This document shows, piece by piece, positions 2,948 through 57,509 of a stretch of DNA of 64,000 nt; position 1 is the first letter of the stretch; every line of letters starts with the position of its first letter. The notes below the pieces were generated by a model, which had not been told where the DNA came from, ran no database searches, and saw only the letters and a program-made list of their open reading frames with translations. Source of the DNA: Octopus sinensis (lineage: Eukaryota); the NCBI RefSeq assembly GCF_006345805.1, contig NC_043006.1, positions 39,742,001 to 39,806,000 of the forward strand, written 5' to 3'. A program made the translations under genes and the position numbers.

Positions 2948-3030
2948 CTACTACTACTACTTACTACTATACTACTACTACTACTACTACTAATAATAAT
3001 AATAAATAATAATAATAATAATAATAATAA

Positions 3031-3070
<40 letters not shown>

Positions 3071-3071
3071 T
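2948..3071. repeat. (CTA)n/(TAA)n microsatellite
   Basis: Direct reading; borders the R4/Dong fragment. Confidence 0.95.
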
Positions 3072-3833
3072 TAGCAATGGCTGCGGGGAGGAGACTGAAA
3101 AGGGCCCACTGAGGCATTAGTGTGTAGCACTCAAGAAGAAACTACTCCAAATATGACATTGATAAAAAAACTGACTCGCCACAGTGTAGGATGTGTTCTG
3201 AGAAAAGAGAAAGCATAAGCCATATTGTTAGTGAGTGCTGTAAGCTCGCACAACGCGAATACAAAAGGAGAATCGACAATGTAGTCAGATATGTCCACTG
3301 GCAGTAAAGCAAATATCGAGAGAACCGAAGAATGGTATGAACACAAGCCAGAAGGAGTAATAGAAAACAAACATTATAATACTCTGGGATTTTAACATAC
3401 AGTGCGTGGATATGAGACGGCCAGATATCGTGATCATCCATAAAGATGTAAAAGAAGCAATGATATAGATACTGTAATACCAGGCGATTCGAGAGTGAGA
3501 TGTAAGTAAACAGAAAAGACTGAGAAGTACCAGCCACTGCGGGACGAGATGGGAAAGTTATGGGGCATGAATGAGGAAAGTAATGAGGATACCAGAGGTA
3601 ATTGAAACATTAGGAGGAGTTTCCAAGGGCTTTGAAAAACATATTAAGAAAATTGGAGCTGCTGTCAGGTTCAAAGTGATCCAGAAGACAGCATTGTTAG
3701 GTACAGTTCGCATTCTAAGGAAAGTATTGTCTCTTTGAGTCACAGGAGAAGGCACTACTTGAAACATTTGGTGATTTGTTTTTGCTTGCTTTCAAGCAAA
3801 TGATAACCGGTAATTAAGGAGTATCCGAGGGTT

Positions 3834-3835
<2 letters not shown>
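3072..3835 (+). mobile_element. R4/Dong-clade non-LTR retrotransposon, 3' fragment (zinc knuckle + restriction-like endonuclease), degenerate
   Basis: Frameshifted translation gives CRMCSEKRESISHIVSECCKLAQREYKRR (CCHC), RRPDIVII (PD motif), EKYQPL and QKTALLGTVRILRKVLSL*; flanked on both sides by (TAA)n, the known Dong target. Confidence 0.85.
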
Positions 3836-3870
<35 letters not shown>

Positions 3871-3872
<2 letters not shown>

Positions 3873-4418
3873 GCAGTACCAGGCAGTGGCTCTCATGACT
3901 TCTGATCTTAACTGATTGGAAGTGTTTTCATGTACATTGTTTTGTCTTGGTATAAAAGATGGGCTACAGCAAATATTATGCTCAATACCAGAGATTTGCT
4001 TGTCAGTTGTTTGACCTTAACCAGTTGAGCATGTCCCTTAGTGGCTGACGATATGTGTATCTCTGATCACGAGCAGAAGTAGTGGGGGAGCATCATAGCC
4101 ATGTGTTGAGAGGGATTCTTTGGGATTTGAATAGTTCACCTCTGGAAACATGAGTGGTTCTTTCAACATCCTTAAACAACCCTTATACAGGGACCGTTTG
4201 AGCGGGATGGGCTACTCAACCTGAAGAAAATTCTAACTGGGCCCCACCTGCAAGGTCATGTGCTGTTTATCTTGATATGAGATCACCATGTCGCGCACAT
4301 ATGGTTGTGATGCATGTGCCTGGTGTACCTTTATCAGACGGGTAGTCATGATGGGTATATTGGGCTTCGTATATTTTACCCCAGTGTCACTTTGATGGCA
4401 TGAACTGCTCTCTCACTC
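3871..4418 (+). mobile_element. Element X copy 1: ~550-bp non-coding interspersed repeat in (TAA)n
   Basis: Clearly similar to 4482-5035, 56209-56762 and 56859-57208; (TAA)n on both sides. Confidence 0.85.
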
Positions 4419-4477
<59 letters not shown>

Positions 4478-4481
4478 TAAT

Positions 4482-5035
4482 CCTGATGCAGTACCAGGCA
4501 GTGACTCTCATGGCTTCTTATCTTAACTAATTGAAAGTGTTTTCATGTACATTGTTTTGTCTTGGTATAAAAGACGGGTTAACAACAAATATTCTGCTCA
4601 ATACCACATATTTGCTTGTCAGTTGTTTGGCCTTAACCGGTTGAGCATGTCCCTTAGTGGCTGACGATACGTACATCTCTGATCACGAGCAGAAGTAGTG
4701 GGGGAGCATCATAGCCATGTGTTGAGAGGATTTTGGGGGAAGTTTGGATAATTCACCTTTGGAAACAGCGGTATTTCGTTCAACATCCTTAAACAATCCT
4801 TATTCAGGGTCATTTTGAGTGGGATGGGCTACAAAACCTGAAGAAAATTCTAACTGGGCCCCACCTGCAAGGTCATGTGCTGTTAATCTTCATATGAGAT
4901 CACCATGTCACGCACATCTAGTTGTCGTACATGTGCCTGATGTGCCCTTATCAGACGGGTAGTCATGATGGGTATACTGGGCTTTGTATATTTTACCCCA
5001 GTGCCACTTTGATGGCATGCACTGCTCTCTCACTC
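4482..5035 (+). mobile_element. Element X copy 2
   Basis: Starts CCTGATGCAGTACCAGGC, ends CTCTCTCACTC then (AAT)n. Confidence 0.85.
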
Positions 5036-5049
5036 AATAATAATAATAT

Positions 5050-5114
<65 letters not shown>

Positions 5115-5149
5115 TGATGATAATAATAATAATAATAATGATGATGATG

Positions 5150-5191
<42 letters not shown>

Positions 5192-5217
5192 TAATAATAA
5201 TAATAATAAAAGTAATC

Positions 5218-8235: not shown

Positions 8236-8472
8236 ATCAGTTCCAGCACAATTTTGACAGAACATATCTGTGATGAAATGTATTCTATCCACGATCAACC
8301 TATCTTTTCTTTTCAGATAAGGCCTATCTAGGACCTTTTTTAAGAGTAATGGTTTTGATTTAAGAGAGGTCTGGTTGCTATTTCTAACGGGTAGGTAAAA
8401 GAGCCTTCAAAAGGGTATTCCCAAAGTTTCGGGCCTTGTGCCTTGAGTAGAAAAGAATATTTATTTTCTTCA

Positions 8473-9238
8473 AGGCGGCAGCTGACAGAAATGTTAGCAC
8501 GCCGGGCGAAATGCGTAGCCGTATTTCGTCTGCCGTTACGTTCTGAGTTCAAATTCCGCCGAGGTCGACTTTGCCTTTCATCTTTTCGGGGTCAATAAAT
8601 TAAGTACCAGTTATGCACTGGAGTCGATGTAATCGACTTGATCCATTTCTCTGTCCTTGTTTGTCCCCTCTGTGTTTAGCCCCTTGTGTGTAGTAAAGAA
8701 ATAGGTATTTCGTCTGTCTTTACGTTCTGAGTTCAAATTCGGCCGAGGTCGACTTTGCCTTTCATCCTTTCGGGGTCGATTAAATAAGTACCAGTTACGC
8801 ACTGGGGTCGATATAATCGACTTAATCCTTTTGTCTGTCCTTTTTTGTCCTCTCTGTGTTTACCCCCTTGTGTGTAGTAAAGAAATAGGTATTTCGTCTG
8901 TCTTTACGTTCTGAGTTCAAATTCGGCCGAGGTCGACTTTGCCTTTCATCCTTTCGGGGTCGATTAAATAAGTACCAGTTACGCACTGGGGTCGATATAA
9001 TCGACTTAATCCTTTTGTCTGTCCTTTTTTGTCCTCTCTGTGTTTACCCCCTTGTGTGTAGTAAAGAAATAGGTATTTCATCTGTCTTTACGTTCTGAGT
9101 TCAAATTTCGCCGAGATCGACTTCGTCTGTCATCCTTTTGGGGTCGATAAATTAAGTACTAGTTGCGTACTGGAGTCAATCTAATCGTCTGGCCCCCTCC
9201 CTCAAAATTTCGGGCCTTGTGCCAAGGGTAGAAAAGAA
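8473..9238 (+). mobile_element. Meta-domain SINE (family D) with four tandem 184-bp units
   Basis: Head AGGCGGCAGCTGACAGAAATGTTAG, B-box GTTCAAATTCC, Meta-like GTCGACTTTGCCTTTCATCCTTTCGGGGTCGATAAATTAAGTACCAG; unit starts at 8521, 8705, 8889, 9073. Confidence 0.85.
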
Positions 9239-28137: not shown

Positions 28138-31100
28138 TCACAGGCGAAACCTGAGAACTGGTCCATTTATACAGGCCAGTCTCGCACAATTCACCCACCT
28201 TTCATAAAACTTGCTATCGGACAGCACTTTCCTCTCTAACCTCATCTTCCTTTTCAAGTGAAACTTGAAAAAGTTGATGAGGCCTTGACCAAAGAGGAAA
28301 GTGTCTGACTTTAGCCCTTTCAAACGAGTCCACCACACGACTTCTTTCGCCACCGCCACAAGGCACAAGAAAACGGCCTCGCCCTCCTTGTTAAAGGAGG
28401 TCGGCGGGGCAATCTTCACTATGGATTCGGCCGATAGTCGGATCCGTCCTACACGTGACAGTAGCTGTTCGACATAAACCCATATTTCAGCAATACTCGG
28501 GCACTGGACGAGTGCGTGCAGAACGGTTTCGTCGTCCTGGCAACACCTCGGGCAGGCCCGGCTGACGGCACTTCCGTGCCGGTAGAGTTTATCTCGAACA
28601 GGCAGAGCCCCTCGGTAGCACTGCCAGGCGAGAGACCTCTGGAAATTATCCATCGGCCCCGGCCCGAAAGTCCTCCCGAACAGACCGCTCAGTTCGTCGT
28701 CTTCAACGCCTAGAGTTTCCCCGAGAACGTCGTCGCATTTTTCCTCCACTAACCCTCTATAGAACGCTAGAGTGGAGCTGTAACCGACCGCATTGCCCGC
28801 CTGGTGGAGGGCGGAGAGGGCTTGACGGCACTCGAGGTGCCAAGCGCCCTTTCTCGGTCTACGTTTGATCCAGGTCTGCAGCTCCGTCAAAGAGACGAGC
28901 TGCGGAAAATCGCGTCTGACAAAAGACGACCACACCTGTTCACCGTCTAGGAAGCGCTTGAGATGCCGCAGCCTGAGCGCATGTCTGCGCAACAGCAACC
29001 ACGGCATTCCAAGGCCTCCGTTCAGCGGTCGTTGACAGCAGATGGATCGCCTGACCAGTGGCACCTGACCCTTCCACAAAAAGTCGAAGAGCAGGCGTAC
29101 CAGCTTGGCCAACCAGCGGTCGGGACAAGGGACGACGGTCAAGCGGTAATAGATGACGGATGCGATGTACGCATTCGCCACCTCCGCTCGACCTTTCAGG
29201 GACAGCTTCCTCTCGGCCCATTTCTGGGTGAGACGTGCCACCCTGCTCGTCACCTCTTCCCAGTTCTTATCCACCTGGAGGTCCGGACCGAACCAGACCC
29301 CGAGCAGTTTAACGGGTCCGTCTGTCCAGCGCCCTACGACGCTGTTGGACGGCATGGGCTTGCCTCTCCAGGTGCCCAGTTGCAAGCCCACAGACTTTTC
29401 CGCGTTAATCTTTGCCCCTGTCACCGCTTCGTACTGGTTTAGCGTCTCGCCAATCAGGCCAATGTGCCTGTGGCTCGACACCACCACGGTGACGTCGTCG
29501 GCATAAGCAGACACGCTGTTTCCGCCTCCTAGATCGCGCGGGATGCCCCTCAAAGCCTCCAACTTGCGCAGTAATGGCTCGAGAGTCAAAATGTACAAGA
29601 GGGAGGAGAGAGGGCATCCTTGGCGGACCGAACGCGAGATGTCAAACGGTTCCGAAAGGTGACCGTTCACCCGTATCACCGAGCAGATGTTGCTGTATAA
29701 AGCAGCGATCCACCCGCGGAAGACTGGACCGAAGCCGGCTGCCTTGAGGACAGCTGCCAGGTACCGATGGTCGACCCTATCGAAGGCTTTACTCTGATCC
29801 AAGTTGATCAAAGCCCCCCCGCGCCAGCGTCGTTACCCACCCTCTCTATGATGTAGCGCATGAGATGGAGGTTGTCGTGTATCGACCTGGTCGGCACGGC
29901 GCATGTCTGCGTCCCGCCGACCAGCTTGTCCACGACAAGCGCCAATCTCTTGGCTAGCACCTTGGCCAAAATCTTCAACTCTGCATTGAGCAGAGTGATG
30001 GGCCGGAAATTCCCTATAACGTCCCCCTTGTTTGGGTCCTTCTTTAGCAAAGCCACCACCCCTCGACAGACAAAAGCAGGAATTCTCCCGTTTTGCTGCC
30101 AGTTGCAGTAGACGTTTGCCAACAGGTCCGCAAACAAGTCTGGCATTGAAAAGTAAAGCTCGTAGGCCAGACCATCCAAACCCGGCGATCTACCTCTCGT
30201 GCAACTCTTCATCGCTTCCTGTACTTCCCAGGCAGATATCGGTCCTTCGCAGCACTCTGCCTCGCTGTCCGAGAGTTGCGGCAGTCCGTCCAGGTACACA
30301 CCGAAGTCTGTACCGTTGGTGTCCGTTCCACCGCTCGTCCCAAACAGTTGAGCAAAGTGCCGCTGAAGCACCGTACACATCTGCTTCGGTTGGGTAACCT
30401 CGCGCCCGTTCTGGTCCACCAAAGACCGAATGGTTGCTCTGTTGCCTCGCTTCGCCTCCGCCACGCGGGCCCATCGAGCGGCTCTAGTCCCCTCCCCGCT
30501 TAGCGAACGTGCCTTAGCTCTGACAACGCAGCCTTCGTGTTTGGCGTCGAAGTGTTGGTCGAGGGCCAACCTTGCCGCCAACACGTCGGTCGCGATGCCA
30601 GTGTCAAGAGCCTCGTCTAGTTTCTTAACTAAATCCCGCTCTCTCTTCCTACGTTCAATAGCTAGAGTCTTACTATACCTAATCGACTCTACTCTAATTG
30701 CTCTCTTGAGGGCAAACCACCAGTTGTTGTTGATGATTGCCCCCGTGAGCGCCCGCTTAACTAGTAAACTAATCCGGTCTCTGTAAGCTTTGCACGCCGT
30801 TAACGACGCGTTCAGCTTCCAGTAGCCGGGTCCCTGTCTATGTAGCCTATCTAAGTCGACCGTACAGATCACTAATTTGTGGTCCGTATATTCGACTAGG
30901 TGGAATTGTGGACCCCCTACGCTGTCCTTATCCGCTGGCCTACAAAACACTCTATCTAAGTAATCTAGACGACCCGATGCGGTTTGTCCAAGTCCACATT
31001 GGCACATTCGGGTTGTCTAGTCGAAACCTGTCGGACAGCTGAAAGCGGCCGAGTAGGTTGGCGAGGTTCTTGCACCCTCCCCCTCTCCTATCAGACGCTC

Positions 31101-31567
31101 CCCTGCCCACCCGATCGAAACGTTCGTCTAAGACAGCGTTCCAATCCCCAACTAGTACTAGAGTGCGTGACGTTCCCAGGAAAACCTCCAGACGTTTGAA
31201 ATAATCCGACTGCCCTGCTCCTGTCGGAGCGTAGGCAGCCAGCAGTCTGAAAGCACCGCCGTCACTACCGTCGACGTCGAGGACCACCAACTTACCTTCC
31301 GGATCCAAGAAGACTGTCCTTATTTTCAGGTCCAGGCCCTTCCGAAACAACACCGCAGTACCACCACCGCCCGCTCCCGGCCGACACGGAGATAGAAATA
31401 TCTCGTATCCGCCGAAAAGGGCTGCGAGTTCCTGCGGGTGGGAGAGCCTGGTTTCACTGATGGCTGCTACATCCACATCATGAAACCTCAGGTCGTTTAC
31501 AGGTGACCCTGTTTCCAAGGTGACCGAGGCCTCTCACATTCAAACAACCGATTCTAAGATTTGCCAT
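28138..31567 (-). pseudogene. Tx1 ORF2: AP endonuclease - reverse transcriptase - CCHC zinc finger, with three frameshifts
   Basis: ATG at 31567 gives MANLRIGCLNVRGL; ISET, GDWN, YLDRV, TDHK (APE); GYWKLN; SPGLDG, FRPITLLN, KAFDRVD, RQGCPLS, YADD (RT); CPRC-x8-H-x4-C. Frameshifts near 31520, 30980 and 29815. Confidence 0.9.
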
Positions 31568-35771: not shown

Positions 35772-38700
35772 GTTGGTGGCATCCTTTTTGTCTCAGGAGA
35801 CAATGGAGTTGCACATAAAATAGTCTAGTCCGGCTTTTACATTTCATGTCCTGATACATTTCGTGCTGTGGCTGTGTAGTCCTATGCTGGACAAACACTC
35901 CCACTGGCAGGTACCGCAAATGTAGCGAAGACTGTTCCTAGCTAGTTGTAATGCCATAGTTTCTTGTTGACGTCTTTTCTTGTCTTTCCATTTCTCCTCC
36001 CTCTCTCTCTGTCACTCCTTTGTATTCCCTCTTTTACGGTACGTCGCCAATCTCCACGGTTGCCGGCAACTGCCTCCCACCGCTAATATTGATGTTGCAG
36101 GCCTTCATGTCCCTTTTGCAAACATCCTTGTAACGTAAGAACGGTCTACCCACAGACCTAGTACACTTAGCAAGCTCTCCGTAGAGTATGTCCTTGAGGA
36201 TTCTGCCATCTTTCATACGGCTAACATGCCCAAGCCATCTCATACGTCTTTGTGTGAGGAGTGCAAACATGCTTGGTATTCCTGCTTGCTTGAGGACATC
36301 TTTATTGGGGATATGATTCTGCCATTTGATGCGGAGGATTTTCCGGAGGCAGCGCAGGTGAAAGATGTTTAGGCGACGCTCTTGGCGTGTGTATAGCGTC
36401 CAAGTCTCACTTCCATACAGTAGAGTGCTAAGTATACATGCCTGGTAGATCATTTTCGTAGTCTTGGTCAGCTTATTGTTGCCCCACGCCCGTTTGGAGA
36501 GTTGGGCCATCGCAGCAGCTGTCTTGCCAATGCGTATATTGAGCTCAGCGTCAAGGGATAGGTTGTAGGTGACGGTAGAGCCAAGATAGGTAAACTTCTC
36601 CACCTCTTGTAATCTGTGGTCTCCAATATGTATGTTTGGGATGTCCGATGTAGCCTGACCCATGATGTTAGTCTTCTTAAGGCTGATAGCTAAGCCAAAG
36701 TCGTTACATGCTTGCTCAAAACAGTTAATGAGCCTTTGGAGGGCTTCTTCTGTGTGTGATACCTGAGCGGCACCATCAGCAAATAACATCTCCTTGATCA
36801 GAACGTTTCTGATTTTGGTCTTGGCACGCAGGCGCGAGAGATTGAACGGTTTCATGTCACTTCTACTGTGCAGAAACCCTCCATCATCTGATGTCTGAAA
36901 GGCATGTGAGAGTAAGAGCGAGAAGAAGATGCCAAATAATGTAGGAGCGAGGACACAACCATGCTTTACCCCGTTTTTTATTTGGAAGGCGGCTGATGTT
37001 GAACCATTGTGCTGTATGGTGCCTTGCATATCATCATGGAAAGACTTGATGATCCTCAGCAGCTTTGGTGGACATCCAATTTTTTGGAGCAGGATGAAGA
37101 GGCCTGTTCTGCTTACCGAGTCAAAGGTCTTTGTTAGATCAATGAAGGCCATATATAGTGGCATTTTCTGCTCTCTGGACTTCTGAAGTTGGCGTATGGA
37201 GAATATCATATCGATAGTTGATCTGCTACTTCTAAAGCCACACTGCGATTACGGATAGATTCGAGAAGCAAGTAGTTGTAGCCTGGCCAGGATAACTCGG
37301 GCAAAGGTCTTTCCAACAGTGCTTAGAAGAGATATTCCACGGTAATTGTTACAATCACCACGGTCACCTTTGTTTTTGTAAAGCGTAATGATGTCAGCAT
37401 CCCGCATATCCTGAGGAACTGTACCCTCTTCCCAGCACTGACACAGAAGCTCATGAAGGTACCGAAGCAGGAAGGTGTTTTTGCCGGCTTTGATGATCTC
37501 TGAGGGGATGCCGTCTTTTCCCGGAGCCTTGTTTCTTGCTAGGGAGTCAATAGCCATTGTGAGCTCTGCTATAGATGGCGGACTGTCAAGTTCGCACATG
37601 ACTGGCAAGATCTTGACACTCTCGACTGCAGCCTCAGCCACTGTAGTCTCCCGTGAGTAGAGATCCTGGTAGTGCTCCACCCATCTATCCATTTGCTTGT
37701 TTTGACCCCTGATGAGATCTCCAGTAGTTGATTTCAGAGGGGCTGACTTGGTTGCGGATGGACCGAGGGCCTTCTTCAAACCGGCATACATCCCACGGGT
37801 ATCGCCCCCGTCAGCAGCTGACTGGATACTCTGACAGATTTCCTGCCAATACCTATTTGCACAACGTCTGGCTGTCAGTTGGGTTTTATTTCGTGCCTTT
37901 CTGAGTTCTTCGAGTGACTTTGTAGAAGAGTCACTCTTGTATTGCATCAGAGCTGCACGCTTTGCTTCGATAACTGGCTCCAGCTCTGAGAGCCCAGCAT
38001 TGAACCAATCTGGGTTTTGCCTTTCTCTCATGCCGAAAGTATCTATTGATGTCGTATACAAAGCTTCCCTGATATAGTTCCATCTACTTTCAGCAGAGGA
38101 GGTTGGGCAGCTAATGAGGGCAACCTTGATCGAAGCAGCAAAACATTTTCGCAGTGTAAGGTCCGAGGTTCTGGCAGTGTTAATGCGTGGTCGGCCCACT
38201 TTCTTGGAGCGATGGACCTTTTTAGGCAGAATCCTAACCCTACTTCTAAGTAGTGAGTGGTCTGTGTCACAATCCGCGCTGTGGTAACTGCGGGTCAATA
38301 GAATAGAATTCAGAAAAGATCTCCGTGTAATGATGAGATCCAGCTGATGCCAGTGGTGAGATCTTGGATGTCTCCAAGATGCCTTGTGGGATGGTTTGTT
38401 GGTAGAGAATGGGTTTGTGATGCACAGGTTATGGTATGTGCAGAATTCGAGTAGTCTCTGACCATTGTCATTCATGTTGCCAATACCAAAGTGTCCAACA
38501 CAAATGGGCCACGAATAATGGTCAGATCCCCCGCGAGCGTTAAAATCCCCTAGAAGGTAGATATTTTCAGTTGTTGGTATATTTTCTATGACACAGTTGA
38601 GATCTTTGTAGAACTGGTCCTTGGTCTCCTCTGAGCTGTAGAGAGTGGGAGCATAGATGCTGAGTAGATGTACTGAGCCAGAAAAGGTTGAGAGGCGCAG

Positions 38701-39180
38701 TGAGAGGATACGCTCAGTGCCTCCTGATGGTGGTTCTATTGAGGAGAGTAATGAGTTTCTCACTGCAAAGCCAACGCCATGTTGACGAGGTTCTTCTGGA
38801 TCTCTTCCCTGCCCTGCCAAAAGAAGGTGAAATCCTGTTCTTTGAGTTTGTCGTTTGAGGGAAGTCTTGTCTCCTGTAGCCCAGCAATGTTTATGTTGAG
38901 CCTCTTTAGTTCACGGTCAATGATGGCCGTTTTCCTTGTGTCTTCAACCCTGAGTAGATCATCAGATATTCCAGGGCACATGGTCCTGACATTCCAGCTT
39001 GCCAACCGCAGGACTGGTGGTTTCTTGTCTTTTAGTTGTTTACCCGGTGCAGAGGTTGCAGGCCGCTTTTCAAGTCATACTCTTAGCTCCAAGCACCCAA
39101 TAAAGCAGGCGGCCTGTGGCGGGTCAGCACCTTATTAACTGGGGGCTGCCCAGCTTGAGAGGGCAGTAGCTAACCAATAG
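35772..39180 (-). mobile_element. RTE-clade LINE, essentially full length (~3.4 kb), degenerate
   Basis: Single frameshifted ORF: SWNVRT, GLQETR, YAPT, GDFN, QLDLI, TDH (APE); APGKDG, YRGISLL, GVKHGCVLAP, LFADG (RT, second catalytic Asp mutated); C-terminal CGTC...HSHSTKC; short 3' UTR. Confidence 0.92.
35861..39060 (-). pseudogene. RTE endonuclease-reverse transcriptase ORF (broken)
   Basis: ORF pieces 38760-39005, 37249-38820 and 36034-37209, plus a C-terminal zinc-finger-like piece. Confidence 0.88.
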
Positions 39181-42240: not shown

Positions 42241-43735
42241 CAGAGGTCACCAAGCTACAGCCTGCGAGGTCAGTTCATCAGGCTCGTCGCCGAACTGCTA
42301 CTTTTGTGTAAATACCTGCATTGAGAGTTCATTCCTGTAGCGATTGTCTGTTAACTGTGTTTAAACATTCTCTTCGCGAAAATGTTTGTTGAAAAGGAAT
42401 CTGTCACTCGTTCAAGTTACAAGAGAGTGCTTAAGATAGCAGAACGAGTAAAACCGTTTACTGACGGCAACTTCACCAAAGAGTGTATGATGGAAGCAGC
42501 GAATGACTTGTGTCCTAAGAAAGTCGATTTGTTTGGAAATATCAAGTTCAATTGTGTGGAGAACAAAAGAACCTGGAGAGAAAATAGTGCTACAGATACG
42601 CGAGACAGATAGGAACTTCTTGTGGTATTCTCTGGCGCTGGATGAGTCTACTGATCTCTCGAGTGCGTCACAAATTCCTGCGTTCATTTGCTGTGCTAAT
42701 TTGGACTTTCAGATCACAGAAGAGTTGGCACCCATTTGCAGCACGCACAGAACAACTAGAGAAGTCATTTTTATGGAAGTTCAGAAAATTTCGCAAAGCT
42801 ATAACTTTTAATGGAATCATCTTCGATGTGTTACAGTTGATGAAAGAAAAAAAAACATGACCGGAGTGAGGAATTGTCTGGTGGGGATGATCGGGACTAA
42901 GTTGAAAGATCATAAATTCCCAGGTGCTCTGTTTGTACACTGCATAATACATCCACGAGTACATTGTGGAAAAGACTTGGACATTTCTTGCGTACTGAAA
43001 CCAATCGTTTCTGCGGTGAACTTCATTCGGAGTCATGCAGTTCAGGCTTTTCTTGAAGAAAGTTATTCTGAATTCTGTGAGTTGCCTTATCACACAGCAG
43101 TGAGGTGGCTGAGCTGCGGTAATGTCCTGTTTCGTTTTTATAAGCTCCGAAGAGAAATAGATATTCTTCTTACCGAAACGGATAGAGCTGATCCGATTCT
43201 GTCCCATCCTTCCTGGCTGTCGAAGTTGTCATTTTTGGTTGACATCACATCCAGCATGAATGAATTGGACTTGAAACTTCAGGGAAAATTTAACCTTATT
43301 TGTGATCTCTACAGAATCAACAAAGGATTTCGGAGAAAGCTATCATTATTTGAAACACAATTGCAAGGAGTAAACTTCTCATTTCCAGTGTTTCAAAGAG
43401 TTTCACGCTGCAGTCGCAGAAGATGGCAACCTCAATGTATGTGACTTAAATAAGCATTTTTTTGAGAGAAACGGCCGAACGGTTTTCAACAAATTTGGCA
43501 GAAATACTTAGTGTCTAAGACGTTTTAAACTTTGGTTTGGTTATCCTCAAACTTGGCTGACAGGAGAATCAAAATGTTTTGATCGTGCATTAAGGATTTA
43601 TGTGCACGCAGGGCATGCATTGTTTTGGCATGCTCTCAGCACAAGAGTCTATTAGTAGCACATAAAGACATGTAATATGTCTATTCAATATTATTTATCT
43701 CTCACCAGATGGAGTATTTTTTGGTTGATCTTACC

Positions 43736-54654: not shown

Positions 54655-55079
54655 ATAGAATGGTTGTATACTGTCAATCTAACAAGAACGTGACAGTAGG
54701 GGGTACACCACCGTTGTATAGCCCTAGGAGGCATCGAACGCCTCCTGACAGCCTCGACACATTTCCCTGTGTCTTATTTTGATAATCAGTGAATAGACTT
54801 CACTGAGTTTATATATATATAGATACGAAGTCCAGGCAGATATCACCAGCCGACCGGTGTCTGCTACTCTAGGCCGATGAAGGACAATGATCCTGAAACA
54901 CGGTGTCCCTAGATGCAGTTCCGGCGGTTGGGGGTGTTTGTCTCCCCTTCGTATATGTATATAAGGACACAGGGAAAAAATGTGTCGAAGCTGTCAGGAG
55001 GCGTTCGATGCCTCCTAGGGCTATACAACGGTGGTGTACCCCCTACTGTCACGTTCTTGTTAGATTTACAGTATACAAC

Positions 55080-55087
<8 letters not shown>
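54655..55087. mobile_element. Penelope-like insertion with inverted arms (54655-54777 / 54961-55087) around a hammerhead
   Basis: ~125-bp arms with internal hairpin AGGAGGC-7nt-GCCTCCT; (TA)n tail at right. Confidence 0.7.
54868..54913 (+). ncRNA. Minimal type I hammerhead motif, U4C variant, GUC cleavage triplet
   Basis: TCTAGG-CCGATGA-AGGA-caatga-TCCT-GAA-ACACGGTGT-C-CCTAGA; all three stems pair. Confidence 0.7.
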
Positions 55088-55609: not shown

Positions 55610-55815
55610 TGAGGCGAGGTGCAAGTATAGGCATCAAGCCGGTAAAAATGGCTTAGAGGTATTTCATCCGTCTCTACATTCTAAGTTCCAATTCTGCGGT
55701 GGTTGAACTGGTCTTTCGTCCGGTCTGGGTCGATAAAATAAGCAGCAGTTAAGTAGTCGGGTCGATATAATCACTTTACGCCTCCCTCCAAATTTCAGGC
55801 GTTGTGCCTATAGTA
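55610..55815 (+). mobile_element. Meta-domain SINE family D, decayed
   Basis: GGGTCGATAAAATAAG...GGTCGATATAATC...AAATTTCAGGC. Confidence 0.55.
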
Positions 55816-55820
55816 ACTGG

Positions 55821-55871
<51 letters not shown>

Positions 55872-55872
55872 T

Positions 55873-56193
55873 AGTAGTTTTATTTTTTATAGCGTGCTTC
55901 CACTTCACTACCGAGCGCAGCTCTGTGTGCCTTGGGTACGTGCTGTGATTTGTTGTAATGCTCTGATGGTTATTGTATGGAAAGTGTTCTGCGTAGGATG
56001 TGTGCAGTGCCTAGTAGTGCAATTTTCTGTATGTTATATGTGTTTGTAAGTCCTGGTGTTTTTGTTATGTATTTGTCTGAATATTTTTTATCATGCCTAA
56101 TGCACCTACTATGATAGGAATTGTTTCTGTTTTTAGATTCCACATTCTGGTTACCTCCATTTCCAGGTCTTTGTATTTTGAAAGTTTCTCCAT
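55873..56193 (-). mobile_element. R4/Dong-clade 3' fragment (second family) in (TAA)n
   Basis: EKLSKYKDLEMEVTRMWNLKTETIPIIVGALGMIK...NIQKIALLGTAHILRRTLSIQ*; homologous to the 3072 C-terminus but with a different 3' UTR. Confidence 0.85.
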
Positions 56194-56208
56194 ATTATTA
56201 TTATTATT

Positions 56209-56761
56209 GAGTGAGCGAGCAGAGCATGCCATCAAAGTGACACTGGGGTAAAATATACGAAGCCTAGTATACCCATCATGACTACCCGTCTGATAAGGGT
56301 ACACCAGGCACATGCATCACAACCATATGTGCGCGACATGGTGATCTGATATCAAGATAAACAGCACATGACCTTGCAGGTGGAGCCCAGTTAGAATTTT
56401 CTTCAGATCGAGTCACCCATCCCGCTCAAAAGGTCCCTGAATAAGGGTTGTTTAAGGACGTTGAACGAAACACCCATGTTTCCAGAGGTGAATTATTCAA
56501 ACCCCAAAGAATCCTTCTCAACACATGGCTATGATGCTCCCCCACTACTTCTGCTCGTGATCAGAGATGCACATATCGTCAGCCACTAAGGGACATGCTC
56601 AACTGGTTAAGGTCAAACAACTGACAAGCAAATCTGTGGTATTGAGCAGAATATTTGCTGTAGCCCATCTTTTATACCAAGACAAAACAATGTCCATGAT
56701 AACACTTCCAATCAGTTAAGATCAGAAGCCATGAGAGCCACTGCCTGGTACTGCATCAGGG

Positions 56762-56762
<1 letters not shown>
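56209..56762 (-). mobile_element. Element X copy 3 (full length)
   Basis: Reverse complement of 4482-5035; (TAA)n on both sides. Confidence 0.85.
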
Positions 56763-56833
<71 letters not shown>

Positions 56834-56858
56834 CATTATTATTATTATTATTATTATT

Positions 56859-57208
56859 GAGTGAGAGTGCAGTGCATGCCATGTAAGTGACACTGGGGTA
56901 AAATATATGAAGCCCAGTATACCCATCATGACTACCCGTCTGATAAGGGTACACCGGGTACATGCATCATAACCAAATGTGCGCGACATGGTGGTCTCAT
57001 ATCAAGATAAACAGCACATGACCTTGCAGGTGGGGCCCAGTTAGAATTTTCTTCTGGTCGAGTAGGTCATCCCGCTCAAAAGGTCCCTGAATAAGGGTTG
57101 TTTAAGGATGTTGAACGAAACACCCATGTTTCCAGAGGTGAATGATAACACTTCCAATCATTTAAGATCAGAAGCCACGAGAGGCACTGCCTGGTACTGC
57201 ATCAGGGC
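56859..57208 (-). mobile_element. Element X copy 4 (~200-bp internal deletion)
   Basis: Both termini retained; junction GGTGAAT|GATAACAC at ~57143. Confidence 0.85.
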
Positions 57209-57509
57209 ACTTATTATTATTATTATTGTTGTTGTTGTTGTTGTTATTATTCAACTTCTTACGGAATCATTTTAAGTGTGTAGAGTGCACCAATTACCGC
57301 AATGACAACTATCGCCTTTGTCTTCCATAATCTCTCCACCCTCTCCTCCTCTCACCCTCTCTCTCTTTTGCTTGATGTTGTTATTTCTCAGGTTTCTTAG
57401 TTCCTTTGATGTCCATCCTATTAACATAGCACTTTGCAAAGTCTGTGATGTGGAGGATTGACAATATTGATAAAACGTTGAACGAAATGTCTGGAAGTAT
57501 TTATCTATC

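Follow-up and report, generated by a model that had tools for sequence, protein, structure and literature searches.

EhSINE1 of Entamoeba histolytica shares its tail with EhLINE1. It is non-autonomous and inserts where the restriction-like endonuclease of its partner LINE nicks the DNA (PMC1635306). The R2 SIDEs and R2/R1 hybrid SIDEs of Drosophila are short, non-coding, non-autonomous and site-specific, have no Pol III head, and depend on an element of the restriction-like endonuclease (RLE) type and on co-transcription; they carry a recognisable HDV-like ribozyme and the 3' end of their partner, and are rare and bound to the rDNA (PMC3414825). TAA repeats are the target of Dong elements (PMC3812793, PMC1635306), and in the R4 clade Dong of Bombyx mori, DongAg and DongBg combine this TAA/AAT target with a 5' junction at which the array is followed directly by G (PMC3812793, PMC3774820); self-cleavage of the Bombyx element at its TAA junction is the work of an HDV-like ribozyme (PMC3774820). 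One of the most active groups of LINEs in O. vulgaris is Dong-R4, with 5 families and 1,129 recent insertions (PMC13282606) and 51 consensus families (PMC13282606 supplement). The mollusc SINE superfamilies (CORE, V, Nin/Deu, Ceph, Meta and Mesc) join a shared middle to different ends and have tRNA- or 5S-derived heads with A and B boxes (PMC5804259, PMC4758252), and the metazoan non-LTR retrozymes are short (150-300 nt), structured, promoter-less and often tandem, and carry a hammerhead (PMC7761336).

We analysed a window of 64,000 nt from Octopus sinensis that contains element X, a young, abundant, non-coding repeat of about 555 bases, which is probably an undescribed variant of the non-autonomous, target-specific retroelements. 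X is like the Drosophila SIDEs in all the general properties listed above, the dependence on an RLE-type element and on co-transcription being part of what we propose for it; unlike them, it showed neither ribozyme nor partner tail in the tests run, is very abundant, and lies in AAT arrays. With the Dong elements X shares the target and the form of the 5' junction, but it encodes no protein, its sense strand is U+G-rich rather than A-rich, and it has no canonical ribozyme core. EhSINE1 is akin to the proposed X in being non-autonomous and in its mode of nicking, whereas EhSINE1 has no microsatellite target, and X has a candidate partner only. The shared middle and different ends of mollusc SINEs recur in X and a second family, Y, described below, but X has no tRNA- or 5S-derived head with A and B boxes. 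Finally, X is short, structured, promoter-less and found in tandem as retrozymes are, but without a complete hammerhead core and with its tandem copies split by target arrays.

Element X, with its 554 nt, is a full-length copy and matches the majority sequence of its family at 98.2% identity (Table 1). Positions in it are numbered as X = 56762 - position + 1, the minus strand being the sense strand. BLAST of the window revealed four copies, two on each strand and 93-98% identical to the majority. Their 3' junction falls at the identical base in 4/4 copies, and their 5' starts (X1, X1, X3 and ~X6) all lie within 6 nt. X showed no ORF-like content and no terminal inverted repeat. A footprint of A-to-I editing was considered and not established (A>G 10 vs T>C 5 in four copies, p = 0.07).

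Table 1. Positions of element X, its parts and its neighbours in the window.
Feature	Position	Strand	Remarks
D1	3070..3835	+	5'-truncated 3' end, putatively Dong/R4-type (CCHC knuckle, RLE), of a family other than D2; directly upstream of X3a
X3a	3869..4418	+	copy of X, without ~5 nt at the 5' end
X3b	4482..5035	+	copy of X, in tandem after X3a
(ATT)n tail	55821..55871	+	tail of the plus-strand repeat at ~55610-55820; array entered by D2 and both X copies
D2	55872..56193	-	5'-truncated 3' end of an RT/CCHC/RLE element, putatively Dong/R4-type; shares array and orientation with X
(AAT)5	56194..56208	-	at the 3' junction of X
Element X	56209..56762	-	full-length copy
3' hairpin (X454-501)	56262..56309	-	best-supported helix; z -4.50 sense, -3.46 antisense
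Predicted domain III (X226-449)	56314..56537	-	multibranch; 16-bp closing helix, absent from the stems of the sequence-only reading; pair probability 0.87-0.99
Predicted domain II (X112-214)	56549..56651	-	long interrupted hairpin; within the part common to family Y (56493-56659)
X1-129	56634..56762	-	speculatively drawable as an HDV-like double pseudoknot with non-canonical core (relaxed descriptor)
Predicted domain I (X1-100)	56663..56762	-	stems X1-4/97-100 and X12-19/82-89; hairpin X30-68
(AAT)n	56763..56858	-	between the two minus-strand X copies; 5' flank of X
Second minus-strand X copy	56859..57208	-	in tandem; internal deletion of about X68-266

All 8 junctions of X, that is both flanks in 4/4 copies, lie in (AAT)n, arrays of which make up 975 of the 64,000 bases of the window (1.5%); this evidence for targeting comes from two independent loci, and target-site duplications are unreadable inside the arrays. 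At both loci (2/2) the array that holds X also holds a truncated Dong-type element in the same orientation, so that X and the Dong-type fragments agree in target site and orientation throughout. D1 lies with X3a and X3b in one array and in one orientation, and in the region 55821-57250 the array is the tail of the plus-strand repeat, which we take to be a tRNA-SINE, and D2 and both X copies went in on the AAT strand.

The assignment of the two fragments comes from their peptides. A protein search with the D2 peptide (P0001) gave 26 matches among 27 candidates, and P0021, a relative of this peptide, has reverse transcriptase, CCHC-knuckle and restriction-like endonuclease regions and gives matches to R2 protein structures (E 2e-24); pieces of D1 match P0021 at E 3e-12 and 6e-11. 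Pfam left P0001 and P0003 without a match and gave P0002 a sub-threshold zf-RVT, the search with P0002 gave no longer homologue, and a search of viral contigs with a full-length relative yielded no Dong DNA. Judged by domain order, by the TAA target and by C-terminal motifs, D1 and D2 are probably Dong/R4-type.

The 3' end of X showed no similarity to the 3' UTRs of D1 and D2 (448 and 403 of 1000 shuffles score equally well), and a likeness to the D2 UTR that had been noticed by eye was rejected as not significant against shuffles. A 3' tail shared with an autonomous partner, as in SIDEs, was thus not seen against the two Dong-type tails compared, nor was a LINE sharing the tail of X marked among the best 20 of 1,091 loose ends in contigs. 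Because no shared tail was found, a Dong/R4 partner of X remains a candidate.

The two loci are nested stacks. That at 55610-57250 consists of a SINE-like plus-strand repeat whose ATT tail holds a Dong-type fragment and two opposite-strand X copies, and the second, at 2975-5207, holds D1, two X copies and a long degenerate AAT/GAT array within a single array, with a SINE-like head at ~5215. Elsewhere the window contains an element with endonuclease and reverse transcriptase frames (28138-31533, minus strand), presumably L1/Tx1-like, whose coding strand folds with z of -7 to -8 (12 shuffles), stronger than X; a nearly complete element with two long frames of 553 and 404 aa (36034-38910, minus strand) that we take to be RTE-like; and a tandem array of ~184-nt units of a SINE-like repeat (8470-9235; plus strand z ~ -5). 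A MITE-like element at 54655-55087 has 125-nt terminal inverted repeats (95% identity), and a 210-aa frame at 42812-43444 (plus strand) resembles in its motifs what we assume to be a fragment of a hAT-family transposase.

A model that had seen the letters alone (the sequence-only reading) had described X as folding, on its sense strand, into many helices with G.U pairs. We found the minimum free energy (MFE) of the sense strand to be -192.8 kcal/mol (z = -3.68; 0/100 dinucleotide shuffles as good) and that of the antisense strand -138.3 (z = +0.19; 58/100 as good), so that the comparison of sense, antisense and shuffles which that reading had proposed bears out a strand-specific fold. The other two full copies fold less well (z = -2.24, 3/100 shuffles as good, and z = -0.38, 27/100). 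A refined majority, that is the window copy corrected at 10 sites from contigs of public runs and at 2 sites from the other copies, reached z = -4.21 (0/120 shuffles as good; antisense +0.48) and beat every single copy, a pattern that would fit structure held in the source and decay in inserted copies. The signal is uneven along X: z <= -2.3 was reached in 5/19 sliding windows of 100 nt, all at the two ends, and X215-450 gave z = -3.47 in the majority. Among background strands (both strands of 18 windows, each 554 nt long, within 1-38,954; 12 shuffles each), 5/36 reached z <= -3.68 and 9/36 reached <= -3.0; three of the five are the coding strand of the LINE at 28.8-31.8 kb.

The G.U pairs themselves proved ordinary and carry no signal of their own. 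They make up 32/187 pairs of the sense fold (0.171), compared with 0.170 +/- 0.020 in 20 dinucleotide shuffles, and 11/163 pairs of the antisense fold, compared with 0.075; stems of at least 10 bp that permit G.U number 11 on the sense strand (9.8 +/- 3.3 in 60 base shuffles) and 2 on the antisense strand. This chance level is explained by the G+U-rich sense strand (31% U, 25% G), and the proposal that G.U-rich helices are a signature of structured RNA was therefore not sustained.

Covariation was equally sought and not found. At well-predicted pairs, substitutions among the window copies break pairing in 29 cases and keep it in 19, none by double change, and the substitution rate of paired sites was 0.047, that of unpaired sites 0.034. 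RNAalifold on three copies, a check that the sequence-only reading had suggested for copies from several cephalopods, gave a positive covariation term (+4.37) and double changes in 2/175 pairs, neither convincing: one is next to a gap, in a stem of 3 bp, and the other in a shifted region. Of 13 polymorphic family sites, taken from the best 40 of 86 variants, 8 fall in pairs of probability >0.7, where 6 keep and 2 break the pair, roughly the chance level for transitions (0.58 keep). The argument that stems closed by wobble pairs point to selection at the RNA level thus fails, the G.U share being that of shuffles and real covariation being absent. The sequence-only reading had also named what would count against it, namely folding no better than shuffles or antisense together with missing covariation: the fold does beat both, and covariation is indeed missing. 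The contrast of the two strands and the z of the majority do support a strand-specific fold and, with it, X as an RNA-level element.

All ten stem arms listed in that reading are found on the minus strand where it puts them and are complementary with G.U counted as a pair, and they differ in whether they are predicted to form. Stems X34-43/50-59 and X454-466/489-501 have mean pair probabilities of 0.98-1.00 and hold; X112-119/207-214 depends on the copy (0.07 in that of the window, against 0.31 and 0.96 in a first and a refined majority); and X81-90/238-247, with 5 G.U pairs, does not form (0.00). In the refined majority, four domains can be told apart, and their pair probabilities are close to 0.9-1.0 (Table 1). 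Domain I, a candidate for defining the 5' end, reaches 0.89-0.99 there, and in the window copy a rival pairing, X22-28/97-103, wins. The hairpin at X454-501 is a candidate recognition signal for the reverse transcriptase.

Rfam gave no match at gathering score in the window, and at E <= 10 its matches (5, 2 and 3) were weak, unrelated and in every case well short of that score. The negative covariance models agree with the earlier statement that X could not be assigned to 7SL, 7SK, U3, RNase P/MRP or telomerase RNA, of which highly divergent mollusc members may escape these models; resemblances of X to U1, 5S, tRNA and telomerase RNA that had been considered were dropped, being without Rfam support. 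ARAGORN found no tRNA, and a pattern search of X found neither A nor B boxes and neither an Sm site nor a C box, with T4 runs at three places, which together disfavour X as a Pol III SINE or as an snRNA or snoRNA. CUGANGA-type words occur at X181 and X357 and GAAA at X281 and X362; inspection gave no full hammerhead motif, and Rfam no match. No likeness to the SINE central domains Ceph, CORE, V, Deu and Meta was apparent by eye, without alignment, in consensus passages of the PMC5804259 supplement.

Four copies in 64 kb make the X family clearly abundant. Of 24 public runs listed, 14, under four organism labels, contain 0.85-0.98 of the words of X. Contig records on X number 44,461 in run X13 and 10,138 in run X8 (the latter RNA by guess), and summed depth does not measure copy number; in run X13 the depth is about even from end to end, suggesting mostly full-length copies. 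Among the best 20 of the 1,091 loose ends, 5' junctions of X carry (AAT)n and in some cases an A-run or (TGA)n, and one copy truncated at its 5' end adjoins (AAT)n in contigs. The raw-read run X24, whose species label is that of the runs richest in words of X, has just 12 partial reads in 12.9 million, and run X15, labelled an insect metatranscriptome, contains X at low depth, likely as stray material. The small shares in runs X16-X20 are not counted as evidence. Pattern scans found no further copies in viral contigs or in prokaryote genomes; six loci from a metagenome scan were all chance 18-19-mers, and in the literature six 16-18-mers of X matched malaria PCR papers alone, all by a single 16-mer, which we put down to chance. 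Motifs of X were absent from the supplements of PMC9115989 that were searched, and no description of X appeared in the literature searched, a scope outside which lie Repbase, Dfam and subscription papers.

Family Y shares X104-270 (56493-56659) alone, has flanks of its own and is rarer than X, occurring in runs X8, X13, X15 and X24. It is recognised by recurring loose ends before 56493 and behind 56659, and by a contig piece that spans exactly this interval. Compared by eye, 9/17 positions are in register in the 30 letters of Y next to X104, a P4-like hairpin is lengthened to ~10 bp, and the first P1.1 position holds G; beside Y, X looks as if it had a 17-nt deletion between two short direct repeats. 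In run X24, four reads over 56378-56439 have ~7 shared differences and other sequence upstream of X324; they possibly represent a third family that shares the 3' half of X, and with it a candidate partner tail.

Since Bombyx Dong self-cleaves from TAA repeats, we searched X for an HDV-like ribozyme. A strict descriptor gave no match in four sequences. A relaxed one, written after sight of the sequence and following the flexibility described for R2 ribozymes (PMC3774820), admits a topology that begins at G1, with P1 at X1-4/97-100, P2 at X73-81/121-129 (7/9), P3 at X82-84/92-94, P1.1 at X86-87/102-103, and P4 at X104-107/115-118 with C117; in 2000 shuffles this post hoc descriptor gave any match in 40 (2%) and one as good in 12 (0.6%). 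C117 and A120 are spaced as the catalytic C and the constrained A of J4/2, a weak agreement because the descriptor required them. P3 has a pair probability of 0.01, the candidate loop is sequestered by X12-17/84-89 (0.83-0.94), and P1 has only 4 contiguous pairs. In the candidate loop, X85-91, the conserved L3 G of the G.U reverse wobble is replaced by A, and what we take to be the other L3 consensus letters are missing as well. In a Nasonia R2 ribozyme, changing the L3 G to A abolished cleavage (PMC3774820). At the rare contig joints where X1 comes directly behind part of another X, 2-4 additional letters of (A)AT are present, in 8 of the best 12 cases, at X31, X95, X123, X136/137 and X231, which suggests that the X RNA begins upstream of G1. 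On the window these joints run from 56761/56762 to 56640, 56627, 56532, 56668 and 56732. Of the earlier suggestion that X carries a processing structure of its own, what is left is a possible relaxed topology without the conserved core; the canonical form was not found.

We consider it likely that X is a non-autonomous retroelement copied by an AAT-cutting reverse transcriptase of Dong/R4 type. Its RNA would arise by read-through transcription, a likely origin because X has no Pol III head, and the R4-type protein would be recruited by the 3' hairpin and the 3' end. As the junctions and neighbours suggest, the protein would then nick an AAT array and prime reverse transcription there. Most copies would be completed, X being short, to the fixed 5' end observed at (A)AT/GCCC, an end that domain I may define or protect; the fold would likely be kept in few source copies, while inserted copies decay neutrally.

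Four other readings, which overlap in part, bear on this one. That a different LINE (RTE, L2/CR1 or Penelope-like) serves X as a SINE-like element, making AAT tails and letting it accumulate in AAT arrays, seems quite unlikely to us: arrays also lie 5' of every X copy, some of them belonging to other elements, the orientation of X is always that of the Dong-type inserts, and the 3' 130 nt of X are unmatched elsewhere in the window despite pieces that we assume to be RTE-, L1/Tx1- and CR1-like. In its favour, X has no tail in common with D1 and D2, RTE elements end in microsatellites (PMC9115989), and what Y has in common with X is its middle alone, in the way that central domains are shared by SINE superfamilies (PMC5804259). 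X might also be derived in the manner of a SIDE, its first 129 nt going back to an HDV-like ribozyme, now decayed or recoded, that frees, or once freed, the RNA from read-through transcripts by cutting at the AAT/G junction. This would be compatible with copying by a Dong/R4-type enzyme, since it adds an origin for the 5' domain, and the ribozyme of Bombyx Dong at the same kind of junction (PMC3774820), a topology seldom drawable in shuffles, and the in-register Y with its longer P4-like hairpin and P1.1 G speak for it. We nevertheless regard it as unlikely, given the failure of the strict descriptor, the post hoc nature of the relaxed one, the missing L3 G, the improbable P3 with its buried loop, the short P1, and joints that place the RNA start upstream of G1. 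That the first 130 nt are even now an active self-cleaving RNA, either of HDV-like topology with a recoded core (a compensated G-C/U-A P1.1 and no L3 G) or a new small ribozyme, with Y keeping its more canonical ancestor, is highly improbable.

The other two readings concern the fold. It may be mostly a by-product of composition and internal history, with function perhaps in the terminal hairpin alone, to which the chance-level G.U share and stem count, the restriction of well-folding windows to the ends, the equally good folding of background retroelement strands and the missing covariation all point. We hold this to be somewhat unlikely, because dinucleotide shuffles control composition and the majority still reaches z -4.2, above the single copies, and resolves into well-predicted, separable domains. 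An unannotated cellular ncRNA as the ancestor of X, joined to a new 3' part and with Y as its possible low-copy relative, could account for the modular fold of the majority and for the lower abundance at which Y shares X104-270, and a kink-turn-like motif at X4-8/90-97 seemed to fit; however, that pattern is not significant (23/120 shuffles have it, 6 with a U.U pair), Y occurs in many contigs and is repeat-like, and Rfam is negative, with no Sm site, C, A or B box, and three T4 runs. This origin, raised by the sequence-only reading and without Rfam support, is very unlikely.

If X is indeed a non-autonomous retroelement copied by a Dong/R4-type enzyme, it would be a microsatellite-specific parasite that thrives on R4/Dong elements and fits neither the Pol III SINEs nor the SIDEs in their textbook form. 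The minimal cis signals for an RLE-type retrotransposon would then lie within its 555 nt, which would offer a short substrate for testing how the R4 clade chooses its RNA and fixes the 5' end. An active ribozyme in X, were there one, would free a very abundant AAT-targeting retroelement from host transcripts. De novo repeat libraries probably already include X as a consensus without a label, and its recognition would help to classify part of the large 'unclassified SINE' and 'unknown' fraction of the octopus (PMC13282606 supplement).
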